A DNA stretch of 64,000 bases from NCBI GenBank assembly GCA_017442155.1, contig JAFSAU010000008.1, positions 67,649 to 131,648 of the forward strand, written 5' to 3'. A model generated the notes under the pieces. The model had not been told where the DNA came from. It ran no database searches and was given only the letters and a program-made list of their open reading frames with translations. Origin of the DNA: Clostridia bacterium (lineage in GTDB: Bacteria; Bacillota; Clostridia; UMGS1883; UMGS1540). Of the stretch, positions 12,717 through 60,550 are shown one piece after another. A program made the position numbers and the translations under genes. Numbering within the stretch: the first letter of the stretch is position 1; every line of letters begins with the position of its first letter.

Positions 12717-12776
12717 AGGGCATTCGGCAGTGATACGGCATTTTATGCCGCACAGCTCACTGCTGAGGAACGAGCG

Positions 12777-13286: not shown

Positions 13287-13332
13287 CCGGCACACCGGAA
13301 AGAAAACAAAAATTTAGGAGGATTGAACGAGT

Positions 13333-15801: not shown

Positions 15802-17751
15802 ATGGAAAAACTGAAACGAGGGATTCATCTTGATTTCCACACCTTGCCCGGTATTTATAACTTCGGCGAATCGTTTGATGCCGAGGTGTTTGCTGAGCGG
15901 CTGAAAAACGCAAACGTTGAAATTATCAACGCATTTTTTCAGTGTAATATCGGGCATGTGTACTATCCGACGAAGATAGGCGTGCCTTACCCGGATATGA
16001 AGGGTGATATGTTTGGGGACATCGTTCGTGAATGCCGGAAAAGGGGCATTCGCGTTGTAGGATATACGAATACAGCTATAAATCATGTCCAGGCGATTTT
16101 GCATCCCGAATGGCAGAGAGTAGATAGCGAGGGACGGGTGCTGCAGCATGAGAGGACAATAACCAGCAGTTTTTTCCGTACCATGTGCTATAACAGCGAT
16201 GGATACCGCAAGTATTTGTCTTCCCTCATCCGCGAGGTGATAGAGCTATATGATATAGACGGTATTTTCGCTGACTGTATGACACCGAACCCCTTCTGCC
16301 ATTGCCCAAAATGCACACGGGAGATGATAGAAGAGGGGCTGGATGTCACAAATGAAGACCATGTGCGGTATTTTGCACATAAGAAGTTTTTTGAATTTGC
16401 CCATTTGATTCGCAGTTCCGTTCCGGAGGGGAAGCTGGTGCAGCAAACCGGCGTTCCCTTCGACTGGGACGGGGCACAGGACGTCAGCACCCATGGCGAG
16501 CTGGAATGTCTCCCGGCAGGAAGATGGGGCTACGACTTTTTCGGGCCGCAGGTTGCTTATATGCGGAAATGCCGTGACCAAATTTTGTATATGTCCGGCC
16601 GTTTTCATTATAACTGGGGCGATTTCGGTGGCTACAAATCAAAGGCCTCTATGGAAAATGATTGCTATGATGCGCTTTCACAGGGCGTGCAGGTTTCGAT
16701 TGGCGACCATATGCATCCGGCAGGGAATCTGGATAAAAAATTGTATGAAGATATAGGAGAAATCTACAGCCGTGTAAAGGCGTACGAGGCATGGTCGGAT
16801 GATGCTGTATACCGTTCTGAAATCGGCATTCTCAATGATAAAACTGCGGTTACCAAAGACGAAATGCGGGGCGGTCTCGGGCGAAACCCCTCAGTACGTG
16901 GCGCAGCAAGAATGCTGGCAGAGCTGAAGTATGGCTTCGATATTTTAAATGAGGACATGGACTTTGCGCCGTATAAACTGCTGATTTTGCCGGATGACCT
17001 GCACATGTCAGAAAACCTGCAAAAAAAGATTTCTGCCTTTTTGAAAAATGGTGGTAAGGTGATTGCTTCCGGTAGTGCAGGCTTAAATAAGGAGAAAACG
17101 GATTTTGCATGTAAGGAATGGAATTTCATCCGGTTTGATGGTATAGACGAGCATAATGTGTCATTCTTTACCGATGCCGTCCGTACAAGACCGACGGCGA
17201 TGTACCGGCCGGGGATTCGCATGACCTCCGGGTACAAAACGGCCGACTATATTAAACCATATTTTAACCGCCATTTTGACGGTATTCATGGGTATCGGTA
17301 CGTTCCACCGGAAAAGGCAACGGGACAGGCGGCGATTGCAGAAAAGGAGGGCATATGCCATATTTGCTTCCGCATTTTTGAAAGCTATTACTTTGAGGCG
17401 TATGCGGTGCATAAGCAGCTTTTGAATGAAATCATCCGGCGTTTTCTCCCTGTACCGCTTTTAAAGACAGAAGGGATACCGTCCACGGCAAGAGTAACGC
17501 TGACGGGTACGGAAGCGTATGAGCTTCTCCACGTCAAGACAAGTTTCCCGGAGAAACGAGGACATGCAATGAGCGTGATTGAGGAGCATGTAAAGCTTCC
17601 GGCAGGGGAATGCATCTCAGTAAAGGGTGCATATAAGGCGGTATACCGGCTGCCGGAAAAAACGCCGATTGCATTTGTAGCAGATGGAGCATATACCAAG
17701 GTGCATCTGCCTGAAATTGACGGCTATGCAATGTTTCTCTTGGAAAAATAG
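15802..17751 (+). CDS. Putative cytoplasmic glycoside-hydrolase-like protein (GHL6-type N-terminal TIM-like region plus beta-galactosidase-trimerisation (GH42 M)-like domain)
   Basis: 649-aa ORF with RBS AAGGAG and no signal peptide. The central segment 'ELKYGFDILNEDMDFAPYKLLILPDDLHMSENLQKKISAFLKNGGKVIASGSAG' matches the GH42 trimerisation/class-I glutamine-amidotransferase-like pattern (YKLvvlP...L..yV..GG..v). The N-terminus 'GIHLDFHT...' is consistent with the GHL6 family. The assignment rests on motif recall only. Confidence 0.5.
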   Translation: MEKLKRGIHLDFHTLPGIYNFGESFDAEVFAERLKNANVEIINAFFQCNIGHVYYPTKIGVPYPDMKGDMFGDIVRECRKRGIRVVGYTNTAINHVQAILHPEWQRVDSEGRVLQHERTITSSFFRTMCYNSDGYRKYLSSLIREVIELYDIDGIFADCMTPNPFCHCPKCTREMIEEGLDVTNEDHVRYFAHKKFFEFAHLIRSSVPEGKLVQQTGVPFDWDGAQDVSTHGELECLPAGRWGYDFFGPQVAYMRKCRDQILYMSGRFHYNWGDFGGYKSKASMENDCYDALSQGVQVSIGDHMHPAGNLDKKLYEDIGEIYSRVKAYEAWSDDAVYRSEIGILNDKTAVTKDEMRGGLGRNPSVRGAARMLAELKYGFDILNEDMDFAPYKLLILPDDLHMSENLQKKISAFLKNGGKVIASGSAGLNKEKTDFACKEWNFIRFDGIDEHNVSFFTDAVRTRPTAMYRPGIRMTSGYKTADYIKPYFNRHFDGIHGYRYVPPEKATGQAAIAEKEGICHICFRIFESYYFEAYAVHKQLLNEIIRRFLPVPLLKTEGIPSTARVTLTGTEAYELLHVKTSFPEKRGHAMSVIEEHVKLPAGECISVKGAYKAVYRLPEKTPIAFVADGAYTKVHLPEIDGYAMFLLEK

Positions 17752-21252: not shown

Positions 21253-21328
21253 TGGCAGGGGCAGAAGGATTCGAACCCTCGACACACGGTTTTGGAGACC
21301 GTTGCTCTACCAGCTGAACTATACCCCT
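21253..21328 (-). tRNA. trnW: tRNA-Trp (anticodon CCA)
   Basis: The reverse complement reads AGGGGTATAGTTCAGCTGGTAGAGCAACGGTCTCCAAAACCGTGTGTCGAGGGTTCGAATCCTTCTGCCCCTGCCA. The 7-bp acceptor stem pairs, the anticodon loop is CT-CCA-AA, the T-loop is GTTCGAATC, and a 3' CCA is encoded. It is close to B. subtilis tRNA-Trp. Confidence 0.9.
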
Positions 21329-21368
21329 ATATGCAATTTTGGAACAAAAGACCCGCTTTCGCGGGCGA

Positions 21369-21444
<76 letters not shown>

Positions 21445-21485: not shown

Positions 21486-21606
21486 GAAAAAGTTTTATTT
21501 TTTTTGTTTTTTTAATTTAGAGCAAATGAAAAAGCTTGCAAACCGCGGAAAACAGTGGTATAATAATTCCGGTTAAAGCTTGAAATCTAAGGAAGAGGGA
21601 TGTAAT

Positions 21607-23064
21607 ATGAAAAGACTTACAGCTATATTTTTAATTTTAACTCTTTTCACAAGTACGCTTGTTGTTTCTGCAGATGGAGCAAGAGTTTTTGAAGAGGAAC
21701 AGACATATGCCCAAAAGCTAAACGCGTTGGGACTTTTTTGCGGTACGGAAAAAGGATTTGAGCTTGAACGGACACTTACCCGTACAGAAGCAATCGTTTT
21801 GATGATAAGAACTCTCGGCAAAGAAGCACAGGCAAAAGAGTACGGAAAAACACACCCCTTTACCGATGTTGCATCGTGGGCAGACGGTTATATCTCTTAT
21901 GCTTATGATATGGGACTTACTAACGGTGTTTCTGATACTATATTTGGTAATGATGACACAGTTGAGTCTAATATGTATCTTACTTTTATTCTCCGTGCCA
22001 TGGGTTATACGGATGAAGGAGATGTTGACTTCATATGGCAGATGCCCTATGCGATGGCAGCTGAAATAGAAATGCTTCCGCCGACAACGGATATAATAAA
22101 CTTTGTTCGTGGAGATGCAGTAACTTTCTTAGCAGCTGCTCTTTTTGCCAAATGCAAGGATGCGGATGTATGCCTTTACGAAAGGCTTATTGAGGAAGGT
22201 GTTTTTACAAAGGAAAAATGGGATACGGTCTTTCCTGATGATCCTTTTGTGACTTACAGAGTGCAAAATCGTGCAGTAGGGGATGCCGTGCGTTCCGAAA
22301 ATGGCGAGACAAGGCTTAATGAGCATTATTTTTACAATCATATGCTTTTAGACATAATGGATAAGGGAGAGTATGTTGAAGCTGTGGTGCCCGTACATCA
22401 CGCGCATTATACGATATGGGAGAATAATCAAATCGGCAGTAGCGGCTCTGGCTCAGGGATTCGCCGGTACATTCTTGACAAGGAAACCTGGCAGGTTGTT
22501 GACGAAATAGAAGGAGGAGCTTTTAAGTGGTCCGAGTTCTTTCCCGAGAGTGCCATAGGTCCTACTAACAATTTCGTATGGAAGGGAATGAATATACGTC
22601 TCGGATTCGAACTGGCAGAGGTTTTTGCCAGTGGTGCCCTTGCTTATACGGCTCCCACATATGAACAGATGATAGAAAAGTACATGGTGGATGAACAGAA
22701 TTTGTACAGTATCAGCGAAAGGATAGAAACTGATGAATGTACTGTACTTTCAGGCTATTTGTCAGGTGTCCCGCATGGACCGGCAGGCTTTGTATGTCTT
22801 ATATACAAGCCCGGTTCAGTGAAGGGCAGCGGAGCGGTTGTTTCTCTTCCGTTACCTGAGACAAGCGCGTGGGGAGCAAGAAAAATTCCTGAGGAGCTGA
22901 GTTTCTCGGAAGATGGAAAAACGCTTTCTTACTCTTTTTGTTTCGACAGTGATATGGTGCTCGAAATAGACGAAGAGGTTAAGAGGGTGGTGCACGAGGC
23001 GGGAACATATAATTATACTGTTGATATTGTAACAGGAGAAACGGTGCTTGAAATTGTAAAGTAA
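21607..23064 (+). CDS. Secreted protein with N-terminal SLH-like repeats, remainder unknown
   Basis: RBS GGAAGAGGGA precedes the ATG at 21607; the ORF track starts 27 nt earlier. Signal peptide MKRLTAIFLILTLFTSTLVVSA. SLH-like segments are 'FCGTEKGFELERTLTRTEAIVLMIRTLG' and 'FTDVASWADGYISYAYDMGLTNGVSDTIFGNDDTVESNMYLTFILRAMGY'. GC is lower (~43%) than in the neighbouring genes. Confidence 0.65.
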   Translation: MKRLTAIFLILTLFTSTLVVSADGARVFEEEQTYAQKLNALGLFCGTEKGFELERTLTRTEAIVLMIRTLGKEAQAKEYGKTHPFTDVASWADGYISYAYDMGLTNGVSDTIFGNDDTVESNMYLTFILRAMGYTDEGDVDFIWQMPYAMAAEIEMLPPTTDIINFVRGDAVTFLAAALFAKCKDADVCLYERLIEEGVFTKEKWDTVFPDDPFVTYRVQNRAVGDAVRSENGETRLNEHYFYNHMLLDIMDKGEYVEAVVPVHHAHYTIWENNQIGSSGSGSGIRRYILDKETWQVVDEIEGGAFKWSEFFPESAIGPTNNFVWKGMNIRLGFELAEVFASGALAYTAPTYEQMIEKYMVDEQNLYSISERIETDECTVLSGYLSGVPHGPAGFVCLIYKPGSVKGSGAVVSLPLPETSAWGARKIPEELSFSEDGKTLSYSFCFDSDMVLEIDEEVKRVVHEAGTYNYTVDIVTGETVLEIVK

Positions 23065-27736: not shown

Positions 27737-27830
27737 CTTCGTCAATTCAATGTTCGCTATGCTCACTTTTTATAAGATAATTTTTCTTGTTACAAGCAAT
27801 TACTGACGCAATTTCCTATGCAATAAAAAA
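27728..27830. repeat. ~100-bp direct repeat, copy B
   Basis: 'caaaattgacttcgtcaattcaatgttcgctatgctcactttttataagataatttttcttgttacaagcaattactgacgcaatttcctatgcaataaaaaa'. Confidence 0.8.
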
Positions 27831-27908
27831 GAAATTTCAAAAAAACCTTGCAAGGGAAGTGAAATACTGGTATAATTATCCTATTATTATATAGGAGGAA
27901 GATTTGAA

Positions 27909-28940
27909 ATGAAAAAAATGGCACTGGTTTTAGCGGCACTGATGCTTCTGACAATGCTCGGTGGCTGCTATAAGTCGGATACGACGATGAAATTCGGTAT
28001 GGCAGGCGGTATGGAGGTCACATCCACACTTTTAGCCTCTCCGGATACCTATTCCAGCTTCGGCGTGGAAAGCCCGGATGTGATACTGGAACAGTTTTCT
28101 GAAGAATCACTGAACGCGTACCTGGAAGAAAGCGGCAATAAGGAAACAGGGGAGCGGCTGGAACTGAGCCGTATTGATGCGGACGGCAATGTGGTGGCTC
28201 CCGGGACGGAGCTGTCTGCCGAAGGAATGTCCGGTACACGCCTTCGTATGAAGTTTGATAGCTTTTCGGATGCACAGAATTCCATACTGCTGAATAGCTA
28301 CCTGAGCAATCTGGGGACTATGTCCCTCAATAAGGATGCTTCTGGAAACGGATTGGATATTGAAGAAAAACATACTGTGCTGGGCACGAAATATACCGCT
28401 TCCGGCAAGCTCAGTGTGTATGGCACATATGCTGAAATGATGGGGGAGAATACGGCAGAAATGCAGGGAAAGCTTGCGGACGCTTCCAACAGCGTTACCT
28501 TCAGGTTCCCGCTTTTCTCCATTGCAAAGAGTAGTGGGGCCGATTCCAAGGGATTTTTGGGTCAGTCGATGACATGGACGGCGACGGCCGGCGCACCGGA
28601 CAGAGATATTTACTTTGAAGTAACGGTTATCAATCCCCTGGTGCTTGACATGGCACTGATTATTCTCATTCTTGTTATTATTCTGATTGTGGTCCTTCGC
28701 AAAAAGAAAAAGAATGATGAGCCGGACGCATACTTTATGGATGAAAACGGCAACCTGATTCCGGTGTACGATGAAGCAGACCTGGAAGAGCTGGAAGCTA
28801 TGGACGGCGTAGCAGAGGATGTGGATGCTGTGATAGAAGAGATAGAAGAAGCGGAAGCAGATGAGGTTCCGGAAACGGAAGATGGAATGGAAGTATCTGC
28901 CGAAGAAGAAATTACGTCAAATACAGAAGACGAAGAATAA
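27909..28940 (+). CDS. Putative lipoprotein with additional C-terminal transmembrane helix and highly acidic cytoplasmic tail
   Basis: 343 aa. The lipobox is 'LTMLGGC'. A C-terminal TM segment 'MALIILILVIILIVVL' is followed by 'RKKKKND' and then a ~90-aa Asp/Glu-rich tail ('EELEAMDGVAEDVDAVIEEIEEAEADEVPETEDGMEVSAEEE'). Confidence 0.65.
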   Translation: MKKMALVLAALMLLTMLGGCYKSDTTMKFGMAGGMEVTSTLLASPDTYSSFGVESPDVILEQFSEESLNAYLEESGNKETGERLELSRIDADGNVVAPGTELSAEGMSGTRLRMKFDSFSDAQNSILLNSYLSNLGTMSLNKDASGNGLDIEEKHTVLGTKYTASGKLSVYGTYAEMMGENTAEMQGKLADASNSVTFRFPLFSIAKSSGADSKGFLGQSMTWTATAGAPDRDIYFEVTVINPLVLDMALIILILVIILIVVLRKKKKNDEPDAYFMDENGNLIPVYDEADLEELEAMDGVAEDVDAVIEEIEEAEADEVPETEDGMEVSAEEEITSNTEDEE

Positions 28941-29176
28941 GTTCAGATGGCAGAAGCGTTTTCCGCTTCTGCCATTTTTGGGATGCAGACTGTTTTTGTA
29001 CATTCAGAATTTACATACGCATACAGCATATTGTGATGGGACGGACAGGCCGGAGGAACTTGTTATTGCCGCAATATCAAAAAGCTTTGATTCGATAGGG
29101 TTTTCGGGGCGTTTCTTTATGGGGTACTCTCCGGTATTTGTCAGATAGGGAGATAAAACACGAAAGAGGATATCTT

Positions 29177-29908
29177 ATGAGTGAAAAAGAAAATATGGCT
29201 ACAGACTACAGTAAAATCGGATTTTTCATGTCCGAAAATGAAGAGCGGTATGCACGGTATGCGGTTGCTAATTCTGAGATGGATGCAGAGGAAATTGTAT
29301 GGCGGGTAAACAACAATCTCGATAAAGAAAAATACCAGTTTGATATTCAGATTTCCGACGGCGATGACCTCTATGTTATCGTGAATAAATTTTTTAAACT
29401 TCCTGCAGAGTATAGTCCGTCTGACCTTGTTGAGGTGGATGAAAGACGTATGCGAAAAGCCGTTGCAAAGGCGTATGTGAAAATGCGGGACGCGGCACAA
29501 AAAGAGGGGTTTTCCATAAGAGTGACTTCAGCCTATCGTTCGATAGAAGAACAAGAGAGGCTGTATAATAAATTTCTTTTAAATGATCCGATGGAGGTCG
29601 TGGATGAAACATGTGCCAGGCCTTGCTATAGCGAGCATCATACTGGTCTGGCTATAGATGTCGAGGGCTCAATTCCGGGAGGACGAAATATCAGTAAAAC
29701 ACCGGAGGCAGCCTGGGTAAAAGAAAATTGCTATAGGTTTGGGTTTATTCTTCGGTATCTGCCGGAAATCGTGGACATAACAGGCTATGCATCGGAACCC
29801 TGGCATTTACGTTATATTGGAGTGCAGGCGAGTACCGATATGAAAGAAAAAAATATAAAGTCCTTTGAAGAGTACAAAGAAAGGTTTTTAAATACAAAAC
29901 ATGCATAG
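29177..29908 (+). CDS. D-alanyl-D-alanine carboxypeptidase, VanY/peptidase M15B family
   Basis: RBS AAAGAGGA sits 7 nt before the ATG at 29177; the track's 29138 start lacks an RBS. The M15B zinc-site motifs 'SAYRSIEEQERLY', 'CYSEHHTGLAIDV' and 'EPWHLRYIG' are present. Confidence 0.8.
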   Translation: MSEKENMATDYSKIGFFMSENEERYARYAVANSEMDAEEIVWRVNNNLDKEKYQFDIQISDGDDLYVIVNKFFKLPAEYSPSDLVEVDERRMRKAVAKAYVKMRDAAQKEGFSIRVTSAYRSIEEQERLYNKFLLNDPMEVVDETCARPCYSEHHTGLAIDVEGSIPGGRNISKTPEAAWVKENCYRFGFILRYLPEIVDITGYASEPWHLRYIGVQASTDMKEKNIKSFEEYKERFLNTKHA

Positions 29909-30032
29909 GAGTTTTGGGCCAGATTTGATATGAGCATAGTAAAGAATGTCGAAGTATGATAATTTGACGATGCTTGGCACGAGAGAGCATTATGTCCCTT
30001 ATACATAGGGTTAAAAAAGAAGGTAAGTTGTT

Positions 30033-30962
30033 ATGGTTCAATATGATGTTTTTGAAAAAGCTGGAATTTTGTTGGAAGATATACCGTATGTTATGGAATT
30101 TGACAGGACATATGGTAAAATGATTGAAGAGATTGCAAATGATTATAAAACGGAGCTTTTCCAATTTCCGTTCAAACCGATGGACAATAATACTTTTATG
30201 AAAGAACACAGAAAGTCCACAGAATTTGTAAAGATTGTTTCAGAACTTTCTCCAGAGCATAGCTATACGTTACAACTTATTTTTTGGTTATATCTTGTCC
30301 CATATATGGAAGAAAATTATAAAAAATATAATATTGATAAGGGAATTTTCAGAGATACCGCAGCAAATATTTCATATAAAGTAAATGAATGTAAAAATGT
30401 CTACGGCGTTGTGGGTGTTTTTACTTCGTGGTTTTTCTTGGAGCAAGAGCTTAATTTATTTGCACTTGGTAGGCTACAGTATAATTTCAGAACATATGAA
30501 TGTAATGATTATCAATGGGGCGATTATACACTAAGGAAAGGTGATTCGGTATATTCATGTCATATTCCGTCATCGGGGCCGCTAAAAGAAGAAGATTGTA
30601 TTTTATCATTTAAGAAAGCATATGAATTTTTTGACGGCGCAAAGCTAAAATGCGGGATACTGCCAATCCTTTGTCAGTCGTGGTTGTTGTATCCTCCGTA
30701 CATAGAAAAGGTATACGACAAGAATTCAAATCTGAAAAAATTTGCAAAGATGTTTGATGTTGTGAGACAGATAGATGCAGGCAGAAAATTTGATGATTGC
30801 TGGAGAGTATTCAATACATCATATAAGGGTTCATCGAAAGGACTGCCTGATGATACTCGTTTACGTCAAAATATGATAAGTTATATCGATAATTATGGTG
30901 TTTTTGGTATAGGAGAGGGTATTATCCTGTTCGATGGCGAAAAAATAGTAAATAGAGAATGA
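30033..30962 (+). CDS. Hypothetical protein (309 aa), possibly an acyltransferase-like (GNAT-related) family
   Basis: RBS AAGGT. Low-GC gene. The family guess rests on weak recall of motifs such as 'CQSWLLYPP'. Confidence 0.45.
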   Translation: MVQYDVFEKAGILLEDIPYVMEFDRTYGKMIEEIANDYKTELFQFPFKPMDNNTFMKEHRKSTEFVKIVSELSPEHSYTLQLIFWLYLVPYMEENYKKYNIDKGIFRDTAANISYKVNECKNVYGVVGVFTSWFFLEQELNLFALGRLQYNFRTYECNDYQWGDYTLRKGDSVYSCHIPSSGPLKEEDCILSFKKAYEFFDGAKLKCGILPILCQSWLLYPPYIEKVYDKNSNLKKFAKMFDVVRQIDAGRKFDDCWRVFNTSYKGSSKGLPDDTRLRQNMISYIDNYGVFGIGEGIILFDGEKIVNRE

Positions 30963-31127
30963 TTTTAAGGCTTTGGACAGGCACAGCTTATATCACATCG
31001 CGAATCGAACAAGTGTGAGCGAGTATATCGTCAAATTTTTTGTCCCAGTCTTGACACGAACCTGGCGACGGTTAAGGAATATATCGGTAAAGGATGAAAT
31101 TTTCATAATGTAAAAGGGGATAGAGTA

Positions 31128-31820
31128 ATGAAAATTAAAATTTTACACATGGTAGATGGAGCGAAAAAAGCAACGGGAACAACGGTGGTAATAGACGTTT
31201 TTAGAGCTTTTTCAGTAGAGGCATATTGCCTTTTTATGGGTGCTGAAAAAATTATTCCCGTAGGCGATGTAAAGCTTGCGTATGAGTTTAAAGAAAAAAA
31301 TCCTGATTATATCTTAGCAGGAGAGAGACATGGTAAAATCCTTCCGGGTTTTGATTGTGGTAATTCGCCTTCTGAGATTGTAAAGCTTGATTTGAAGGGC
31401 AAAACGGTAATTCATACAACAAGTGCGGGCACGCAAGGGATAGTTAACGCTGACGGTGCAGATGAAATAATCGGCGGAAGTCTTTTGTGTGCAAAGGCAA
31501 TAGCAAATTATATTAAAAAAACTGACAAAAAGGATATTTCTTTAGTATGTATGGGACTTGAAGCCGTTTCGCAAACTGAAGAGGATAATCTGTGCGCCAA
31601 TTATATAAAGAGTTTGCTTTTGGAATGTGAGACAGATTTACAATCGGAAATAGAAAATCTTAAAACAACAAGTGGGGCAAAGTTTTTTGATAAAGCTCAA
31701 AATGAAGTTTTTCCAGAGGCAGATTTTCATATGTGTGTGGAGTATGACAAATTTGATTTCATAGTCAAACTCGAAAAAGGTGAAGACGGAATCAGTTATA
31801 TGAGAAAGTATAATGTATAA
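31128..31820 (+). CDS. 2-phosphosulfolactate phosphatase (ComB) family protein
   Basis: 'TTVVIDVFRAFSVEAY' and 'FDCGNSPSEI' are ComB-family hallmarks. 230 aa with RBS AAAGGGGA. Confidence 0.65.
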   Translation: MKIKILHMVDGAKKATGTTVVIDVFRAFSVEAYCLFMGAEKIIPVGDVKLAYEFKEKNPDYILAGERHGKILPGFDCGNSPSEIVKLDLKGKTVIHTTSAGTQGIVNADGADEIIGGSLLCAKAIANYIKKTDKKDISLVCMGLEAVSQTEEDNLCANYIKSLLLECETDLQSEIENLKTTSGAKFFDKAQNEVFPEADFHMCVEYDKFDFIVKLEKGEDGISYMRKYNV

Positions 31821-32021
31821 GATAATAACACAAGGGACGGTTATGATGTGTTTGTGTCAAGTCCATACAATTTTAAACATTAGTTTGCCGATTTTGATAT
31901 TTACATACACTATCGGGAGCGAGAAAATTCAGTATTCTCGCGGGTTCTAAGGAAAAGTGATTAAGGAAAAACAGTTGAAAAAACAGGCTGAAAATAGTAG
32001 GTCCTATTATTCACTGTTCTC

Positions 32022-32040
32022 CTGACTTGACAATATCATA
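32022..32040 (+). promoter_or_regulatory. Island promoter box 1 ('ctgacTTGACAATATCATA') upstream of 32086
   Basis: A variant of the box TTGACAAAA(T/C)CATA that recurs upstream of 33471, 34772 and 36185. Confidence 0.45.
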
Positions 32041-32085
32041 TTTGCTGAAATGTAAAAACTGATTTAATACAAAGGAGTAATTATT

Positions 32086-33414
32086 ATGTTTGAATTTGGA
32101 TTTTATGAAAAAGAAATCACACCACCATTAGGAAGCGGAATACCGGGGTATTTTAATATTCGCAGAAGTTGCGATGTTCTTGACAGACTTTACGCAAGAG
32201 CAGTTGTAGTAAAATCAGGGGAAGAAAAGCTGGCTATTCTTTCGATAGACGGACTTCACCCTAAAACAGATATATGTGCCGGTATAGCAAAAAGAATAAC
32301 AGAGTATACAGGAATAGGACGCAAAAATATCATGATTGCCTTTACTCATTCGCACACTGCAATACCATTTAGATTTGAAGGGATTGCATTTGAAGATGAT
32401 GAGATTGCAGCAGACTCAATAAAGGGGTATATAGATGTATTTACAAGATTAGTTGCAGATTGTGTAACATTGGCGAATTTAAGACTGAAAAAAGCGTCTG
32501 CACACTTTGGTAAAGGTGAGGTACACGGTATTTCTTTCTGTCGTGATTATTTTATGAAAAATGGTACACCACAGACAAATCCGCCAAGAACCAGCCCTGA
32601 AATAGTTAAATCGGTTACAGAGTCTGACAAAGAACTGCCTATTCTTATGATAAAAGATGAAATGAATAACCCCATGGGTGCAATTGTTGGTTTTGCTTGT
32701 CATGCAGATTGTGTTAGCGGAGAAAAACTTACAGGAGACTATGTTTCGGTATTATCAAAGGAATTAAAAAAATTCTACGGGGAAGATTTTGTAACCATAT
32801 TCCTTCTGGGTTGCAGTGGAGATGTAAATCATTTCGATGTTTCCAAAGAGTCAGATTTAGATGATCATTATATTATAATGGGTAAAAAATTAGCTGCCGA
32901 AGCTATAAAAACTGCAGAATATGCAAAAGAATTAGAAAAAACACAAATAAGCTCACAGCTTGAATACATAACTATTGCCCGCATTGAAGTGGAAAAAGAA
33001 AAAATAGAAGACGCAAGGAATACAATAGCAACAATAAAAGAGAAAAAAGGTGTTAAAATTTCTGCAGATAATACCGATCCTGAGCAGTATAAATTAGCAA
33101 TGGCAAAAAGACTTGTTAACTTTTTAGATTCAACACCCGAAAGCTTTGATGTTCCTGTGCAATGTATTCAAATAGGTGAATTTACCATTTATGGATTTAA
33201 CTCGGAAATATTTACTGAATTTGGGAAAATAGTTAAAGAGGGAGATGGAACAGGAATAAATCTTGTTGCAACGCTTTGTAATGAGGCTTTTGGCTATGTT
33301 CCAACACGCGATATGTTTTATGATACAATATATGAATCCAGACCTGGCTCCAGCCGCCTTGACAAGGAAGCGGGCTATATTATGGCCGAAAAGCTTATTT
33401 CTATGAAACAATAA
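32086..33414 (+). CDS. Neutral/alkaline ceramidase-like hydrolase (N-terminal ceramidase domain family)
   Basis: The N-terminus 'FGFYEKEITPPLGSGIPGYFNIRRSCDVLDRLYARAVVV...LAILSIDG' matches the ceramidase N-domain pattern (G..K.DITPP.G.P..GY......G..D.L.ARA.V....). 442 aa with RBS AAAGGAG. Confidence 0.45.
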   Translation: MFEFGFYEKEITPPLGSGIPGYFNIRRSCDVLDRLYARAVVVKSGEEKLAILSIDGLHPKTDICAGIAKRITEYTGIGRKNIMIAFTHSHTAIPFRFEGIAFEDDEIAADSIKGYIDVFTRLVADCVTLANLRLKKASAHFGKGEVHGISFCRDYFMKNGTPQTNPPRTSPEIVKSVTESDKELPILMIKDEMNNPMGAIVGFACHADCVSGEKLTGDYVSVLSKELKKFYGEDFVTIFLLGCSGDVNHFDVSKESDLDDHYIIMGKKLAAEAIKTAEYAKELEKTQISSQLEYITIARIEVEKEKIEDARNTIATIKEKKGVKISADNTDPEQYKLAMAKRLVNFLDSTPESFDVPVQCIQIGEFTIYGFNSEIFTEFGKIVKEGDGTGINLVATLCNEAFGYVPTRDMFYDTIYESRPGSSRLDKEAGYIMAEKLISMKQ

Positions 33415-33428
33415 TTTTTCTCCCCGGC

Positions 33429-33459
33429 TTGACAAAATCATAAAGTTTGATATACAAGG
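33429..33459 (+). promoter_or_regulatory. Island promoter module: box 1 TTGACAAAATCATA plus box 2 GTTTGATATACAAGG
   Basis: 'TTGACAaaatcataaagtttgaTATACAaggagg' gives a -35, a 16-nt spacer and a TATACA -10, with the RBS immediately after. Confidence 0.5.
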
Positions 33460-33470
33460 AGGTAAATCAA

Positions 33471-34622
33471 ATGATTGATTATGAAAAAGTTTTTAAAAGA
33501 ATAGATGCACTGGAAAAACAGTACATTACATTATTGGAGGAATTTTGCCTTATCGAAAGTCCTACTGATTATAAAGAGGGCGTAGATGCCGCAGGCAACT
33601 ATATTATAGAAAAGGCAAAGGCTTTTGGTTGGAAGATTGAAAAACAAGATCAGACAATATCAGGGGACTGCATTTGTATTACTATGAATCCAGAGGCTAC
33701 AGAAACTCCGGTATGCCTTTCGGGACATATTGATACTGTTCATCCTGTAGGGCTTTTTGGAACGCCTGCTGTTAAAATAGATGGAGACAAAATTTATGGT
33801 CCCGGAGTTTCTGACTGTAAGGGAGGAATTGTGGCAGCTTTTTTGGCGATGGCAGCCCTTGATGAAGAAGGCTTTCGCACACGCCCTATAAAGTTAATAT
33901 TGCAGTCCGATGAAGAAACAAGCAGTAGCGAAAGCAACAAAACCACTGTTCAATATATGTGTGAATGTGCCCGTAATGCTGTTGCGTTTTTGAATTGCGA
34001 ACCTTGTATTGCCGGCACGGCTGTGTTACAAAGAAAGGGAATAGCAAAATATGTCTTTACTATCACAGGAAAAGCCGCGCATGCTGCCAACTGCTTTAAT
34101 GGCATAAGTGCAATAACTGAAGCAGCTCATAAAATTCTTGAATTGGAAAAATACAAAGATAAAAACGGAATTACAGCAAATTGCGGTATAGTTTCGGGTG
34201 GAACAAAAGAAAACACAGTTCCCGAAAAATGTGTCCTCAAGGTAGATTTTAGATTTTCAAACAGCGAAGAACTTTCAGAGGTAAAAAATATCGCCCAAAG
34301 AGTAGCAGACACTTCTTATGTCGAAGGAACCACCTGTGAATTAGTTTTGAAAAGTCTGCGAGATGCTATGGAACTTAATGATATAAACATCAGATTGCTT
34401 GAAAAAGCAAACGAGGTTTTTGAAGCAACAAATTTGCCAAAACTTTCACCTCGCGCAACGGGAGGCGGTTCGGATGCAGCATATACAACACAGTGCGGTA
34501 TTCCTACATTGGATTCATTTGGAGTTGAGTGTGGAAACATTCACTCGAAAAACGAATATGCACTAATACCATCGTTAAAAGAATCTGCAAAGAGAATAGC
34601 GGCAATCTGCTGTTATATATAA
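33471..34622 (+). CDS. M20 family metallopeptidase / amidohydrolase (ArgE/DapE/CPG2-like)
   Basis: The ATG at 33471 is preceded by AGGAGGT; the track's earlier start contains the RBS itself. Metal-ligand motifs are 'LSGHIDTVHP' and 'GVSDCKGG'. Confidence 0.75.
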   Translation: MIDYEKVFKRIDALEKQYITLLEEFCLIESPTDYKEGVDAAGNYIIEKAKAFGWKIEKQDQTISGDCICITMNPEATETPVCLSGHIDTVHPVGLFGTPAVKIDGDKIYGPGVSDCKGGIVAAFLAMAALDEEGFRTRPIKLILQSDEETSSSESNKTTVQYMCECARNAVAFLNCEPCIAGTAVLQRKGIAKYVFTITGKAAHAANCFNGISAITEAAHKILELEKYKDKNGITANCGIVSGGTKENTVPEKCVLKVDFRFSNSEELSEVKNIAQRVADTSYVEGTTCELVLKSLRDAMELNDINIRLLEKANEVFEATNLPKLSPRATGGGSDAAYTTQCGIPTLDSFGVECGNIHSKNEYALIPSLKESAKRIAAICCYI

Positions 34623-34665
34623 AATTAGCAAGGCAAGTGTGATGTGATTCAATTTTTTGCCTAAC

Positions 34666-34703
34666 TTGACAAAACCATATGAATAAGCTTTGATATACAA
34701 GGG
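34666..34703 (+). promoter_or_regulatory. Island promoter module (box 1 TTGACAAAACCATA plus box 2 GCTTTGATATACAAGGG) upstream of 34772
   Basis: The near-identical two-box element is duplicated from the 33471 upstream region. Confidence 0.45.
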
Positions 34704-34771
34704 ATAAATTTTTATATTGACTTTACATGAGTCGGATTGCGTATAAATTTATCAAAATGGAGGACTTTAAA

Positions 34772-36052
34772 ATGGATAGTATCACAATCACCAAAAAGTT
34801 AAATGTAAAGAAGCAATACGATATTATTGTATGTGGAGGCGGTGTGGCGGGGGTCGCCGCTGCAGTCACCGCAGCAAATGGTGGACACTCGGTGCTCATT
34901 ATAGAAAAGTCAAATATTCTTGGTGGACTTGCAACCTTGGGTTTAATCAATCTTTTTGTTCCAATGTGTAATGGGCGCGGTAAGCAAATTATTTTTGGTT
35001 TATGTGAAAAATGGGCAAGATTAAGTGCGGAATATGGTTATGATACAATACCAAAGGAATGGAGAAACGGAGAACCGAAAGAACCTACAGACATAAGATA
35101 TATTCAACGGTTTTCTCCCCATATTTTTGCACTTCAGCTTACAGAAGAAATAACCAAGTCAGGGGCGGATATTCTTTTTGATTGCATGGCTTGTGAACCT
35201 GTTATGGATGGAAATGTATGCAAAGGTGTTGTTACTGAAAGTAAGTCAGGCACAGAGTATTATGCATGCAAAATGATGATAGATGTAACGGGCGATTGTG
35301 ATGTTTTGCGTCGTGGTGGAGTCCCTGTTGTTGCAGGTGAAAACTTTTTTACATATAGTGCAAAAATGATTACGCTTGCATCCTGTGAAAAAGCTGTCAA
35401 AGAACAAAATATTTACCATGCCTTTACCGGCATTTCCGGTGGGAATATAAATCTGTTCGGAGATAATCAGCCGGATGACATACCGAAATGGTCTGGTCTT
35501 ACAGTTGAAGAGGTTACAGATTATTTGATAAGAAATCAACATTTGGTTCTTGAAAAGTTAAAAGATACAGACAGATTTAGCCGTGAAATTACACATCTTC
35601 CGTTTATGCCTCAGTTCAGGACAACTTGCAGACTTGATGCTGACTATGCCTTAAGGGTTGAAGATGCATACAGGCATTTTGACGATTCAATATGTGCAAT
35701 AAATGATTTTGAACACAGAAACCACTTGTTTGAGGTGCCATTAAGATGCATAACCCGAAAAGAATATCCAAATATGTTAACAGCAGGCAGAAGTGCTGCC
35801 GGTATAGGGTATGGATGGGATATCCTTCGTGTTATTCCGCCTGCGATTATTACGGGTCAGGCTGCTGCAAAGGTGGCATGTATGGCAATTGAAGATAAGA
35901 CAGATGTTGCTAAAGTAAATATTTCCATATTGCAATCAAGGCTTGAAAAAGATAATATTATGGTTCATTTTCCTGATGAATATGTTCCTGAGGATAAAAC
36001 TGTTATTATTCATGGTAAAAATACTGCGGAAATTGATGGCGGGCATCTATAA
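34772..36052 (+). CDS. FAD-dependent oxidoreductase (PF12831-like)
   Basis: The ATG at 34772 is preceded by GGAGGA. The dinucleotide-binding motif is 'YDIIVCGGGVAGVAAAVTAANGGHSVLIIEKSNILGGLAT'. Confidence 0.7.
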   Translation: MDSITITKKLNVKKQYDIIVCGGGVAGVAAAVTAANGGHSVLIIEKSNILGGLATLGLINLFVPMCNGRGKQIIFGLCEKWARLSAEYGYDTIPKEWRNGEPKEPTDIRYIQRFSPHIFALQLTEEITKSGADILFDCMACEPVMDGNVCKGVVTESKSGTEYYACKMMIDVTGDCDVLRRGGVPVVAGENFFTYSAKMITLASCEKAVKEQNIYHAFTGISGGNINLFGDNQPDDIPKWSGLTVEEVTDYLIRNQHLVLEKLKDTDRFSREITHLPFMPQFRTTCRLDADYALRVEDAYRHFDDSICAINDFEHRNHLFEVPLRCITRKEYPNMLTAGRSAAGIGYGWDILRVIPPAIITGQAAAKVACMAIEDKTDVAKVNISILQSRLEKDNIMVHFPDEYVPEDKTVIIHGKNTAEIDGGHL

Positions 36053-36129
36053 TATATCAGGAAGACAAATGCCGAAATAAAAGGCTTCCCCTCAAGGAGA
36101 AACCTCTGAGAAAACAAAATTTTTTGTCC

Positions 36130-36147
36130 CTGACTAACAAAATCATA
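36130..36147 (+). promoter_or_regulatory. Degenerate island box 1 ('ctgacTAACAAAATCATAg') upstream of 36185
   Basis: It shares the CTGAC prefix and AAAATCATA core with the 32022 and 33429 boxes. Confidence 0.35.
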
Positions 36148-36184
36148 GCGTAAATTATACCTAAAATAACGGAGGGAAACAAGT

Positions 36185-37057
36185 ATGAACCTTGCAACTA
36201 CAACGGAAGATTTTTCTTTTTACACCAATGACCAGACTAAGATAATAAAATGCATTAAAAAATCCGGGTTTACGTATGCAGATTACAGTTTCGGGGTGGA
36301 TTATAAAAACCGAAGCGGTATATATGCATCGGATTGGAAAAAGTATGTAAAGGAGCTGCAGGAGCATTGTAAAACCATAGGGGTAACGCTCATACAGGCA
36401 CATTCTCCAATGGGAACACCGCTTGCAGATAACAATGAAGAATTTATCAATGCTACAAAAAGATGCATAGAAGCTTGCGGCGTATTGGGGATAAAAAATA
36501 TAGTTGTCCATTCGGGCTACTTAAAAGGGATTTCTAAAAAAGAAACCCTTGAGAAAAATAAGCTGTTTTATGAAAACCTTCTTGGGACGGCAGAAAAATA
36601 TGAAGTAAACATACTGACTGAAAACTTCAATAAAATGTGCATTGAGGATATGTACTGGATTGATAATGCGACGGATTTACTGGAACTGATTGAATGCGTA
36701 AATCATCCTCTTTTTCACGCCGTATGGGACACCGGTCATGCCAATATGCAGGAAATGTCGCAGGAGGAAGAATTAACACGTTTGGGCAAGCACGTGAAAG
36801 CACTTCATATACATGATAACAACGGGGAGAAGGATCAGCATATGTGCCCGTTTTTTGGGACGCTGAACGTGGATTCTCTTGTAAAAGGATTGAAAAAAAT
36901 CGGGTATGACGGTTATTTTACTTTTGAGGCATCCAATTTCTTTGAACCGGCAACAATCTCAAATTCGGATTTTGAACCGGATCTGGACCTGAAGCTTGAA
37001 GCAGAAAAGTTACTCTGCAAAATAGGTGAGAAGATTCTGGAGAGGTATTCACTGTAA
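36185..37057 (+). CDS. Sugar phosphate isomerase/epimerase (xylose-isomerase-like TIM barrel)
   Basis: 'IVVHSGYLKG', 'VNILTENF', 'HAVWDTGHANM' and 'ALHIHDNNGEKDQH' are typical of AP-endo-2/XylI-like TIM proteins. RBS GGAGGG. Confidence 0.75.
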   Translation: MNLATTTEDFSFYTNDQTKIIKCIKKSGFTYADYSFGVDYKNRSGIYASDWKKYVKELQEHCKTIGVTLIQAHSPMGTPLADNNEEFINATKRCIEACGVLGIKNIVVHSGYLKGISKKETLEKNKLFYENLLGTAEKYEVNILTENFNKMCIEDMYWIDNATDLLELIECVNHPLFHAVWDTGHANMQEMSQEEELTRLGKHVKALHIHDNNGEKDQHMCPFFGTLNVDSLVKGLKKIGYDGYFTFEASNFFEPATISNSDFEPDLDLKLEAEKLLCKIGEKILERYSL

Positions 37058-37113
37058 TTTTTTGTTTCTGCCTTGACACGGTCTGAAATGGTGGTTTTAT
37101 TGAAAAGAATAGG

Positions 37114-37142
37114 TTGACAATATTTTGAAAATTGTATATAAT
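37114..37142 (+). promoter_or_regulatory. Consensus sigA promoter upstream of the GDPD gene
   Basis: TTGACA, a 17-nt spacer, then TATAAT ('TTGACAatattttgaaaattgtaTATAAT'). Confidence 0.65.
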
Positions 37143-37193
37143 ATACTCTATAAGGAAAAATATGAATTATTCTGCCGGAGGTGACGGACACGA

Positions 37194-37904
37194 ATGATCA
37201 ATTATGCACACAGAGGGGCAAGTGAATATGCGCCGGAAAACACACTGTCATCTTTTTATCTTGGATTGCAGCAAGGCGCAAACGGGATAGAAACGGATGT
37301 GCAGCGAACGAAAGACGGTACGTTGGTCTTGTTTCATGATGATACACTGGAACGAGTCACAAATGGAAAGGGAAGACTATCGGAACACACGTGGGAAGAG
37401 CTTAAAGCTTTGAAGGTTTACGGAAACAGTACGGTTGATTTTTTTGACAGAATCGTTACAGTAAGAGAGTTTTTAGAAAAATTTGCGTGTTATGATATAC
37501 ACTTTGCAATAGAACTTAAGGGCGAGGGCGTGGAGGCAGAAACACTTTCGCTGATAAAAGAGTACGGTGTTATCGGTAAAACCACATTTACAAGCTTTAA
37601 TTTTGAATATATCAAAAAAATAAAGGAAATCGACCCAAGTGCAAGAGTAGGATGGCTTACAGAAAACCCGGGAGAACAGGAGATAGAAAAATTATTGCGT
37701 ATCTCCGGTGAGGAAATGGCCCCAAAAGCCGAATATATCACGGAAGATTTAATGAACACGCTGCGAAAAAGAGGACTTGGAGTAAGAGCATGGGGCGTTT
37801 CAAACGTTTCGATTATGAAGAAAATGTGTCAGCTAAACGTTGACGGTATGACAGTGAATTTTCCGGATAGATTATTTGAGTGGCTGCATTGCAGGGGGAA
37901 ATAG
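37194..37904 (+). CDS. Glycerophosphodiester phosphodiesterase (GDPD family)
   Basis: '[16 protein letters not shown]', '[28 protein letters not shown]' and 'IELKG' are GDPD catalytic motifs. RBS GGAGGTG. Confidence 0.85.
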
Positions 37905-37985
37905 ATTGGTTTTTGCGCTAATATGCGCGGGTCTATCGAATAAAATAAAAAAGTACGGGTAAACCCCGGAGAAAGGACGAATCAA

Positions 37986-38303
37986 ATGGCAGAAATTATT
38001 AAAACAGCTGATTTTGAAGAAAAGGTAAAAAAGGCAGACAAGCCGGTTCTGGTGGATTTTTACGCGGATTGGTGCGGGCCATGCAAAATGCTCAGCCCTA
38101 CAGTGGAAAAGCTGGCAACAGAGTTTGCAGGAAAGGCATATGTGTATAAAGTGAACACGGATGCCGACGGAGCACTGGCGGCAGGCTTTGGCATCATCAG
38201 CATTCCCACGCTGATTTTCTTTAAAAACGGAGAAGAGGCAGACCGCGTGGTGGGTTTTGTGCCGGAAGATACGCTCCGTGGAAAGCTGGAAGCGTTATGC
38301 TGA
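37986..38303 (+). CDS. trxA: Thioredoxin
   Basis: 'WCGPCK' active site, 105 aa. Confidence 0.9.
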   Translation: MAEIIKTADFEEKVKKADKPVLVDFYADWCGPCKMLSPTVEKLATEFAGKAYVYKVNTDADGALAAGFGIISIPTLIFFKNGEEADRVVGFVPEDTLRGKLEALC

Positions 38304-51632: not shown

Positions 51633-51883
51633 TTAAATCACTCCTTAAAAAGATTCTGTATTCAGTATATCAGAAGGGTGAATAGATTTCAACCCTTTTT
51701 AATTTTTTTAAAGTAAAAATGTTAATTTTTAGTAAGCATAGCGTAATTTCAGATTTTTTAAAAAAGTGAAATCTTAAAATAAGACGAATTTTGATATAAT
51801 ATTGTTAAGATTGCTTATAGTATATAAGTGCAAAATCATTTATAATGAAATCAACAATATTGTTAATTGGGGAGCGATACAAA

Positions 51884-58301: not shown

Positions 58302-58316
58302 TAAAAGGAGCAAGGT

Positions 58317-60530: not shown

Positions 60531-60550
60531 AGAGAAAGGCAGGTAACAAA

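Follow-up and report, generated by a model that had tools for sequence, protein, structure and literature searches.

A horizontally acquired low-GC islet upstream of trxA in an uncultured gut Clostridia lineage, and the motif repeated at its gene junctions

In staphylococci, composite islands of the staphylococcal cassette chromosome (SCC) are found at rlmH (orfX): tandem modules, ccr-less pseudo-SCC among them, stand there with direct repeats of the integration site, some modules have no recombinase of their own, and the recombinases of the system are large serine recombinases. In Streptococcus thermophilus, the integrative and conjugative elements (ICEs) ICESt1 and ICESt3 are an example of accretion of cis-mobilisable elements (CIMEs), with a tyrosine integrase, a site at the 3′ end of fda and modules of many kilobases. 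Integrons, with their arrays of single-gene cassettes, have to our knowledge not been reported in Clostridia. The subject here is an islet of 8.9 kb with eight co-oriented plus-strand genes, directly upstream of the housekeeping gene trxA in a Clostridia bacterium. It occupies positions 29060-37954 of the window, which is the whole 64,000-nucleotide stretch analysed (contig JAFSAU010000008.1, positions 67,649 to 131,648). The islet was recently acquired from low-GC Clostridia, and horizontal acquisition together with stepwise construction is regarded as very probable. What is new is a cassette-like layout with a repeated junction motif, one that is shared with elements carrying serine recombinases; this layout is put forward as a hypothesis.

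Composition, insertion site and source

The GC content of the islet is 0.377, against 0.478 in the rest of the window. In 1-kb windows it lies at 0.34-0.40 across 30-38 kb, and windows outside the islet have a mean of 0.478 with a standard deviation of 0.031. The low GC is seated mainly in the third codon positions. GC content at these positions (GC3) is 0.40 in the gene for a VanY-like carboxypeptidase, 0.29 for a GNAT-like protein, 0.28 for a ComB-like protein, 0.24 for a ceramidase-like amidohydrolase, 0.29 for both an M20 metallo-hydrolase and a FAD-dependent oxidoreductase (FADox), 0.42 for a TIM-barrel protein and 0.40 for a glycerophosphodiester phosphodiesterase (GDPD). The 35 flanking genes have a mean GC3 of 0.51 (standard deviation 0.048), which gives z-scores of -1.9 to -5.6 for the islet genes and a Mann-Whitney p of 3e-7. 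Tetranucleotide usage corrected for base composition (TUD), taken in 4-kb windows, correlates with that of the core at 0.71-0.73 within the islet and at 0.85-0.94 elsewhere, and the tetranucleotide L1 distance is 0.40-0.43 within it compared with 0.14-0.19 elsewhere.

An earlier note, made from the letters of the sequence, had described a sharp fall in GC from the VanY gene through the GDPD gene and had suggested horizontal acquisition. The fall is borne out by GC, GC3 and tetranucleotide usage, and the deviation is strong in all three, contrary to the possibility that composition would show none. The values it gave for the surroundings were too high: the background, put at ∼52% GC, is about 48%, and the trxA/prmA block, put at ∼55%, is at 0.49-0.50 (GC3 0.50-0.56). 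Within the islet GC3 is split, with 0.24-0.30 in the inner five genes and 0.40-0.42 in the outer VanY, TIM-barrel and GDPD genes, which may be older or come from another source than the inner five.

The closest relative found belongs to a sister lineage and is represented by contig L176 (compared loci carry L numbers), which was chosen by the best homolog (84% identity) of unk343, the 343-aa protein encoded to the left of the islet. The gene order in L176 is NlpC/P60 (minus strand), tsaD, DUF6873, YtxC and unk343, then 105 nt, then trxA, prmA, rsmE and HAD. Its flanks are ∼82-84% identical to the window at the nucleotide level: DNA homology covers 27822-28795 (coding), runs on through the terminator and leader to about 29058, and is found again from 37955. 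On the left side, the comparison shows the terminator of unk343 followed by a diverged copy of the trxA promoter/leader. This alignment of the intergenic regions sets the inserted DNA at about 29060-37954; the VanY gene, missing from the empty site of L176, is therefore counted within the insertion. At its two ends (29041-29058 and 37955-37977) the insertion has imperfect copies, about 18-23 nt long, of part of the trxA leader, which may be flanking direct repeats. L176 has this segment once, as ACGGGCACAGCCCGGAGAAAGGA, and the right copy of the window, directly ahead of trxA, is ACGGGTAAACCCCGGAGAAAGGA.

Other relatives tell the same story from the right side. Eight congeneric species retain trxA-prmA-rsmE-HAD-UDG-CarD, the homology of L176 and these eight congeners to the window restarts at 37954-37971, and none of the islet genes occurs in the eight congeners within up to 10 kb upstream of trxA (less where a contig ends). 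Far from being conserved at the same locus in relatives, the block is absent from this site in L176 and in all eight congeners, and the suggestion of horizontal acquisition has gained support from composition, the empty site, the congeners and a xenologous FADox gene described below. The DNA was inserted in the trxA leader after the lineage had split from its closest sampled relative. Upstream of trxA the congeners differ among themselves, with at least five contexts, and the site is therefore a recurrent break point in the genus. In congener L020, positions 1-3985 directly upstream of trxA are low-GC DNA (0.38-0.42) encoding TrkH, TrkA and a MATE-like transporter, which suggests that the site repeatedly takes up foreign DNA.

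The host is an uncultured ruminant-gut Clostridia/Oscillospiraceae bacterium. Species-representative genomes with a PrmA at 78-87% identity are metagenome-assembled genomes (MAGs) labelled ‘Clostridia bacterium’ or ‘Oscillospiraceae bacterium’, one of them from goat rectum, and unk343 is lineage-specific, all of its 16 homologs coming from related Clostridia or Oscillospiraceae MAGs.

It could be argued that the low GC is intrinsic, with native genes under unusual mutational or expression constraints, or that a mis-assembly has joined two organisms. The positive GC skew does run on through the islet, and its genes run in the same direction as their neighbours, with normal ribosome-binding sites ahead of them. 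Against an intrinsic origin stand the empty site of the sister lineage and the native composition of the FADox ortholog in a congener. Against mis-assembly, identical or 99%-identical DNA recurs in many independent assemblies and MAGs (ENA, JGI, NCBI and Logan), contigs of 204-259 kb included; since both junctions are found in several of these, they are real and no assembly artefact. Either explanation is hardly credible.

The source of the DNA is best documented for FADox, for which foreign similarity was assessed by pairwise identity. FADox homologs form a large family in gut Clostridia, almost all of them 426 aa long. In congener L053 (assembly JAZSIR, which also supplied L023) the ortholog is native in composition (GC3 0.56) and shares 85% of amino acids and 73.9% of nucleotides with the window gene; the ortholog in L069, a genome of GC 0.39 in which the gene has a GC3 of 0.28, shares 87% and 82.7%. 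Because it is closer in nucleotide sequence to low-GC L069 than to native-composition L053, the window FADox is shown by these identities to be a xenolog from a low-GC lineage. In the low-GC genomes L069 (0.39) and L071 (0.36), FADox lies within glycan-utilisation loci and matches its own host in composition. Homologs of the ceramidase-like gene at 70-85% identity sit on contigs of 0.34-0.42 GC, and the tetranucleotide profile of the islet is as close to L071 and L069 (L1 0.136 and 0.151) as are different windows within a single genome to one another. The genes other than FADox, too, are likely to come from lower-GC Clostridia (about 0.36-0.39 GC) living in the same habitat. Amelioration is not detectable for the inner five genes, because their GC3 equals that of the putative donors.

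Mosaic structure and the junction motif

The block is a stepwise, strain-polymorphic mosaic and not one coherent metabolic operon. Contigs L002 and L006, from two samples and ∼99% identical, match the window only from 34711 onward; in L007, also ∼99% identical, the match is limited to the part from 32038 onward, and a DUF559 gene takes the place of the GNAT-like and ComB-like genes. Many further near-identical contigs stop at 31043, 31737-31770, 32004 or near 35950. Differences between strain groups amount to 14-22 single-nucleotide polymorphisms per kb at 34.7-38.0 kb, to 1-2 at 32-34 kb and to 2-7 in most of the core. Because breakpoints and polymorphism densities differ in this way, parts of the islet have different histories.

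Genomic contexts were retrieved for the ceramidase-like and FADox genes. Their homologs are found in at least six unrelated contexts, beside an EamA transporter, a GNAT_C gene of normal GC, GH1, GH35, GH36, GH95, GH123 and GDSL genes. When all eight islet proteins were searched, no second islet gene appeared at high identity in these context loci. A metagenome scan with the ceramidase-like alignment yielded 11 loci only, mostly short. A single catabolic operon or conserved pathway cluster is not supported, the homologs lying in unrelated contexts.

The alternative arrangements have features of their own. In L007, positions 196-925 upstream of the ceramidase-like gene hold the 122-aa DUF559 gene and a 26-codon hydrophobic open reading frame (ORF). 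The DUF559 gene lies between two inverted hairpin repeats, GCCTCCCCTGTGTAAGGGGAGG and GCTCCCTTTACACAAGGGAGC, and a solo copy of the hairpin follows the motif in L039 near 11345. In L002 (1-3864) and L006 (1-150), an alternative left junction joins FADox to low-GC DNA (0.34-0.41) with adh_short, YqfD, YabP and a Gate-domain transporter, core sporulation genes of foreign composition among them. This junction is either a real rearrangement or an assembly switch to a co-resident low-GC organism with a near-identical FADox gene. Dense arrays of CGATAT/ATATCG, with 5-9 copies per about 200 nt, occur in some junctions (L002 3620-3810, L039 9650-9880 and window 30985-31030); those of L039 and L002 coincide in part with small ORF calls (62-66 aa).

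Six internal spacers of the islet hold a co-oriented motif, AATTTTTTGTCCC-N3-CTTGACA, followed by AAATCATA or CGAA (Table 1). In four cases it starts at the stop codon of the upstream gene. The VanY-GNAT spacer has a variant, similar to the blocks CTTGACACGAA and ATTATACAG seen in the copies of L007 and L053. A profile built from the six copies finds these six in the islet, none in the other 55 kb of the window and one in 474 kb of related cellular loci, and this sole match follows the ceramidase-like homolog of L039. The block shared by L039 and the window (82% nucleotide identity) is exactly 32043-33443, from just past one motif to the end of the next; homology stops right after the motif, and the flanks are unrelated. 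In L007, the DUF559 gene and the 26-codon ORF stand between two long-form junction copies of about 75 nt each, the second of which adjoins the ceramidase-like unit at the same point as in the window. The M20 gene is flanked by direct repeats of about 50-65 nt, each consisting of motif plus leader. In these comparisons, the motif travels with the upstream gene.

At the outer borders the resemblance to the motif is a weak observation. The left junction sequence CTTGTTATTGCCGCAATATCAAAAAGCTTTGAT is similar to the internal junction element upstream of FADox, over the right two-thirds of the latter, and 29072-29091 is a direct repeat (D3) of 34675-34694 with 85% identity. The motif copies are only 55-76% alike, and there is no clear pattern by which neighbouring copies would be the most similar. 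A crossover within the N3 spacer is unsupported, since the left motif half does not recur with other right halves. The 16-mers CTTGACAAAATCATAA and TTTTTTTGTCCCATAC were set aside, most of their matches being due to chance or lying in coding sequence. Consensus sequences for sporulation sigma factors, sigma-54, cre, Spo0A, dif and attC were rejected after a visual comparison, Rfam searches at gathering and E-value thresholds matched nothing in the islet or its spacers, the 190-nt element described below included, and literature searches on the topic and on the motif strings returned nothing relevant.

The favoured mechanism is modular accretion. The modules would be single genes, each followed by a conserved junction element built on AATTTTTTGTCCC-N3-CTTGACA; cassettes would be added and exchanged at the junction repeats, either through a recombinase acting in trans or through recombination between the repeats themselves; and the incoming DNA would then be fixed beside a housekeeping gene. 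The two parts of this proposal are not equally secure: the balance of the evidence leans towards a cassette-like modular architecture, and a site-specific recombinase as its motor is a possibility that we hold to be less likely than not.

The motif need not be a recombination site: it could also have a regulatory role, or be a small repeat that has decayed. On the regulatory account, the genes arrived by ordinary transfer through homologous or illegitimate recombination, and the motif is a shared promoter/operator of one regulon, with a TTGACA -35 box, an upstream T-tract and a TTTTGTC-N8-GACAAAA dyad. The motif does include such a box, perfect or nearly so, and stands 38-122 nt upstream of each start codon, the imperfect dyad is of the type bound by dimeric regulators, and a motif-like sequence after FADox in the divergent orthologs L069 and L053 suggests long-term conservation with the gene. 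Other observations speak against it. In the M20 leader (TTGACA at 33429, TATACA at 33451, AGGAGG at 33459, ATG at 33471) the predicted transcription start falls inside the ribosome-binding site, and the -10 elements in general are of low quality and stand at varying distances. Where the gene downstream is a different one, the motif is still found with its upstream gene (after the ceramidase-like gene in L039, after FADox in L069 and L053), the islet has no regulator gene, and in the context loci retrieved for the ceramidase-like and FADox genes the islet genes do not co-occur. One perfect sigma-70 promoter (TTGACA, 17 nt, TATAAT) is present at 37114-37142, upstream of GDPD and after motif copy 6, and is the sole 12/12 consensus match in the 10-kb scanned region; the islet scan as a whole stays near the shuffled expectation, with 39 promoter-like sequences against 30.6 and 8 terminator-like sequences against 6.4. 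The regulatory account is rather improbable, with about one chance in its favour for several against.

Cassette accretion receives a parallel from a second islet. In the ComB-ceramidase spacer of 266 nt lies a non-coding element of about 190 nt that ends in motif copy 2 and has a 9-nt inverted repeat near its ends, TGTCAAGTC at 31855-31863 and GACTTGACA at 32024-32032. It is 77-81% identical to L053 13809-14005, and its hairpin at 31919-31941 shows two compensatory pair changes between the two. In congener L053, the element closes an independent low-GC islet (11378-14050) that stands directly after the native-GC FADox gene and consists of isochorismatase (11378-11884) and GH35 (12022-13767) genes with a GC3 of 0.26-0.27. 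Each of these genes is followed by a motif-like sequence, with weak profile matches (E 0.13-0.5).

Such an element also invites another explanation, in which the junctions are decayed small non-autonomous repeats, of the miniature inverted-repeat transposable element (MITE) or repetitive extragenic palindromic (REP) type, that provide homology patches for reshuffling and that either came along from the donor or spread in this genus. The 190-nt element, at an unrelated site in a congener and with its inverted repeat and compensated hairpin, has the looks of such a repeat; contigs of many samples break off there, the usual behaviour at multi-copy repeats; the DUF559 gene of L007 lies between inverted hairpin repeats, and CGATAT arrays fill the L002 and L039 junctions. 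Against this explanation, only right-end-like copies are present, all on one strand, and a left end was nowhere detected. The stretch in which the window and L053 are homologous begins about 13 nt ahead of the putative inverted repeat, and the 190-nt element has no exact match in IMG/VR. Repeats of this kind are a minority option, not a negligible one.

Turning back to recombination as the favoured route, the motif has counterparts among IMG/VR contigs. The exact pattern TTTTTTGTCCCNNNCTTGACA, with 18 specified bases, has 14 matches there and the reversed control has none; in corresponding scans, neither block 2 (GATTATACAGTCTTTATA) nor the core of the 190-nt element was matched. In L067 (1988-6990) and L060, three large serine recombinase genes, identified by Pfam, stand in tandem, and the motif TTTTTTGTCCCnnnCTTGACA is found 100-115 nt past the last of them. 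In L057, L058, L061, L065, L066 and L068, the motif is followed at once by 5′-truncated genes (Fic, serine recombinase, ugd, GT4). Because the genes that follow it lack their 5′ part, the motif in these contigs marks the end of inserted integrative elements. L058 and L066 are cut at the same place within the signature motif of Fic, suggesting a preferred target. In plasmid collections, megablast found no match to the islet or to the L061 element end. A recombination-site reading of the motif is plausible for the islet too.

The favoured mechanism can be sharpened accordingly to one particular enzyme class: the motif would be the recombination site of a large serine recombinase encoded elsewhere, and the islet a row of tandem mini-elements without recombinase, akin to SCC composites, CIME accretion or an array of attC sites lacking an integron integrase (CALIN). 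Beyond the IMG/VR matches, their tandem recombinase genes and the truncated neighbours, it is in favour of this proposal that the islet copies are co-oriented, one per gene and often starting from the stop codon, that homology blocks stop at the motif and that the islet borders are half-site-like. Several observations pull the other way. The window has no recombinase, no excised circle or empty cassette site was observed, and the link to IMG/VR consists of the same 18 bases that served as the search pattern. The variant junctions of L002/L006 lie about 30-40 nt beyond the motif, with no fixed point, and the copies are only 55-76% alike. Large serine recombinases normally require two different sites, attP and attB, as opposed to arrays of one repeated arm. 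The proposal is tentative and would need to be right against the odds.

A broader and more speculative form of it is non-integron cassette capture in ruminant-gut Clostridia, with 3′ sites of about 30-75 nt, large serine recombinases in trans and hotspots such as the trxA leader; we consider this unlikely. Single accessory genes of lower-GC neighbours would then be stacked with one orientation, each bringing its own 3′ site, composed of AATTTTTTGTCCC-N3-CTTGACA plus an extension. Taken jointly with it and equally unlikely, the 190-nt miniature would be a non-autonomous member of the family, and the recombinases would come from elements ending in the same site.

Several points weigh against the picture of an islet acquired from low-GC Clostridia and built by recombination at the junctions. 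Neither recombinase, integrase, transposase nor tRNA lies near the islet in the 64 kb, so that the insertion mechanism stays putative; the Pfam search of the window's long ORFs found no domain of an integrase, transposase or recombinase, and the window's only tRNAs are at 21253-21444, in agreement with the earlier note, which had seen no such gene at the borders. The flanking direct repeat is short and imperfect, with matches to L176 of 16/22 for the left copy and 20/23 for the right. The mismatches in the TTTTGTC/GACAAAA dyad are uncompensated in a covariation test, and the motif is absent beside homologous genes in several low-GC genomes (L040, L042, L043 and L071). The L002 junction into the low-GC YabP/YqfD genes may have arisen by chimeric assembly. 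Even the nearest low-GC homologs reach no more than ∼83% nucleotide identity, with none higher in the databases outside the species, which makes the donor an unsampled one. The functional theme set out in the next section is drawn from family-level annotation.

Predicted products and the rest of the window

Annotation of the genes (Table 1) is based on Pfam and NCBIfam profile searches of the window ORFs. The starts of the VanY (29177), M20 (33471) and FADox (34772) genes were corrected with the help of gene calls made for identical contigs and of the uniform length (426 aa) of FADox homologs. The earlier note had the identities of the listed genes right; the 309-aa protein it left as unknown carries NAT_N and GNAT_C.

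Table 1. Features of the islet and its borders, in window coordinates
Feature	Position	Strand	Details
Native left flank: 343-aa protein unk343 and terminator hairpin (28947-28975)	27909..28975	+	GC3 0.52, no Pfam family
Left copy of trxA-leader segment, ACGGACAGGCCGGAGGAA	29041..29058	+	Alignment with single L176 copy
Left junction sequence, CTTGTTATTGCCGCAATATCAAAAAGCTTTGAT	29059..29091	+	Read in sequence, weak observation
VanY/LdcB-like D-Ala-D-Ala carboxypeptidase	29177..29908	+	243 aa, PF02557 1.2e-35
Variant junction element, CTTGGCACGAG ... TTATACATAGG, VanY-GNAT spacer	29973..30009	+	Read in sequence
GNAT-like acyltransferase-fold protein (NAT_N + GNAT_C)	30033..30962	+	309 aa, PF18164 3.6e-28, PF18082 1.7e-8
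Motif copy 1, AATTTTTTGTCCCAGTCTTGACACGAAC	31034..31064	+	Upstream of ComB, 0 mismatches to pattern
ComB-like 2-phosphosulfolactate-phosphatase-family protein	31128..31820	+	230 aa, PF04029 7.6e-46
Non-coding element, about 190 nt, two hairpins, ends in motif copy 2	31842..32040	+	Homology to L053
Motif copy 2	32014..32040	+	End of ∼190-nt element
Neutral-ceramidase-like Zn amidohydrolase, truncated, catalytic domain only	32086..33414	+	442 aa, PF04734 N-terminal domain
Motif copy 3, TAATTTTTCTCCCCGGCTTGACAAAATCATAAAGTTTGATATACAAGG	33412..33459	+	Begins at ceramidase-like stop codon
M20 metallo-hydrolase (glutamate-carboxypeptidase / ArgE-DapE-like)	33471..34622	+	383 aa, PF01546 + PF07687
Motif copy 4 and decayed duplicate of M20 leader, ATAAGCTTTGATATACAAGG	34650..34702	+	Repeats D1 and D12
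FAD-dependent oxidoreductase (FADox), PF12831 family	34772..36052	+	426 aa, PF12831 6e-48
Motif copy 5, AATTTTTTGTCCCTGACTAACAAAATCATA	36118..36147	+	Repeat analysis
Xylose-isomerase-like TIM-barrel protein (AP_endonuc_2)	36185..37057	+	290 aa, PF01261 3e-35
Motif copy 6, TAATTTTTTGTTTCTGCCTTGACACGG	37056..37085	+	Overlaps TIM stop codon
Glycerophosphodiester phosphodiesterase (GDPD)	37194..37904	+	236 aa, PF03009 1e-43
Sequence after GDPD stop codon, TTGGTTTTTGCGCTAA	37906..37921	+	Motif-left-arm-like, without CTTGACA arm, weak observation
Native right flank: right leader copy (37955-37977) and trxA (37986-38303)	37955..38303	+	PF00085, L176/congener homology

The products are most likely cytoplasmic hydrolases together with one flavoenzyme, as predicted from their families. 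No obvious signal peptide was seen at the N-termini of the eight translated ORFs, and the VanY-like protein has no N-terminal membrane anchor. All NCBIfam matches of the islet proteins fall under their cut-offs, the VanY and ComB equivalogs included: M20 reaches 207 bits against NF004788, its best match (cut-off 349), GDPD reaches 98.6 bits against NF006989 (cut-off 264), and the matches of the TIM-barrel protein to IolO and CbiR are far under theirs. The best PDB sequence match of the TIM-barrel protein is the uncharacterised MJ1311 (3.9e-14). For the GNAT-like protein, the PDB sequence search gave no match; the exact protein is seen only in the window-type context. A PADLOC scan for defence systems was negative, its sole match being the Rossmann segment of FADox.

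The ceramidase-like protein can be described further from its structural model. The AlphaFold2 model has a mean predicted local distance difference test (pLDDT) score of 92.5, and its best Foldseek matches are the neutral ceramidases 2zws, 2zxc and 4wgk (E 1e-29 to 7.5e-32, TMq 0.71-0.74). The predicted fold corresponds to the catalytic domain of neutral/alkaline ceramidase (PF04734; 2zws, 4wgk), and His, Glu, Tyr and Arg residues are invariant over 53 homologs. In contrast with the neutral ceramidases, to which it is only 16-17% identical, the 442-aa protein has neither the C-terminal Ig-like domain nor a signal peptide.

A common theme might be the salvage of cell-envelope debris by the VanY/LdcB-type, M20 and N-acyl amidase enzymes, the GDPD, the phosphatase and the flavoenzyme; family membership makes this conceivable, and we rate it as rather unlikely. 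Peptidoglycan peptides, N-acyl lipids or ceramides, and teichoic-acid or lipid head-group phosphodiesters are proposed as substrates with low confidence. A coherent pathway, either to coenzyme M via ComB or for cobamide remodelling via the CbiR-like TIM barrel, was considered and rejected: the equivalog scores are far under the cut-offs, and the islet genes do not co-occur in the examined ceramidase-like and FADox context loci.

Outside the islet, the window has genes for large SLH/CBM surface proteins and for sugar-related enzymes, along with housekeeping genes. Paralogous surface proteins of ∼900-1080 aa with SLH and CBM_4_9 domains are encoded at 512-21037 and 55275-63259, and a GHL6/GH42M-like protein at 15802-17751. 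The two tRNA genes, tRNA-Trp(CCA) and tRNA-Ala(GGC), are on the minus strand among neighbours that are nearly all on the plus strand, in a low-GC patch (21-22 kb, 0.39), and are followed by a 494-aa ORF at 21580-23064 with a GC3 of 0.37 and no Pfam family. A divergent AraC-family regulator of low GC (0.38) lies on the minus strand at 50868-51632; beside it, within 50868-53664, are a second AP_endonuc_2 TIM-barrel gene and a GFO/IDH/MocA oxidoreductase gene. In L176, a paralog of the ceramidase-like gene (1838-3151) stands beside a GFO/IDH/MocA gene and an AraC gene.

Comparison with known systems

As a low-GC islet, the locus is textbook gene flow in a dense gut community, for which no new biology is needed. 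It is a clean and dated example from an uncultured lineage, with an empty site, a xenolog to set against a native ortholog, and module polymorphism among 99%-identical strains. Its wider meaning depends on the motif. As a recombination site, the motif would show how single-gene cassettes without a recombinase pass among rumen Clostridia and would extend cassette capture beyond integrons; as a regulatory site or the relic of a repeat, it would make the finding an ordinary one.

Genomic islands and islets are matched by the locus in composition, presence or absence relative to a close relative, adjacency to a conserved gene and accessory enzymes, and possibly in short imperfect border repeats. 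Unlike them, it has no integrase, tRNA/tmRNA target or transposase, is very small (8.9 kb), is split internally by a repeated junction motif and is polymorphic module by module.

With SCC, it shares the stacking of modules beside a housekeeping gene, and large serine recombinases adjoin the motif in IMG/VR. Six co-oriented motif copies, one variant and two half-site-like borders could correspond to the SCC repeats, with recombination at them putative. In contrast with SCC, the window has no ccr-like gene, large serine recombinases turning up only in L067 and L060, beside that 21-nt motif; each module measures 0.9-1.5 kb and holds one gene, and the site is the 5′ leader of trxA and not the 3′ end of rlmH.

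The likeness to integron arrays and CALINs lies in the co-oriented single-gene units, the repeats that can overlap stop codons, the presence of units in other combinations elsewhere and the lack of a nearby integrase. Units do recur as cassettes would: the ceramidase-like unit is found in L039 with the same limits, L007 has a DUF559 unit and L053 a different array. The motif copies differ from attC in having no R″/R′ cores (RYYYAAC, GTTRRRY), and no attC-like fold was evident in four long-form copies, whose single-strand DNA z-scores range from -0.3 to -2.7 without a shared structure. No IntI-type tyrosine recombinase is encoded within the 64 kb, as is likewise the case for CALINs, and several units have promoter-like sequences of their own, unlike integron cassettes.

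ICE/CIME accretion, finally, resembles the islet in its tandem arrays, its direct att-like repeats and its modules without recombination genes. The difference lies in what the modules hold: the islet keeps single cargo genes alone.

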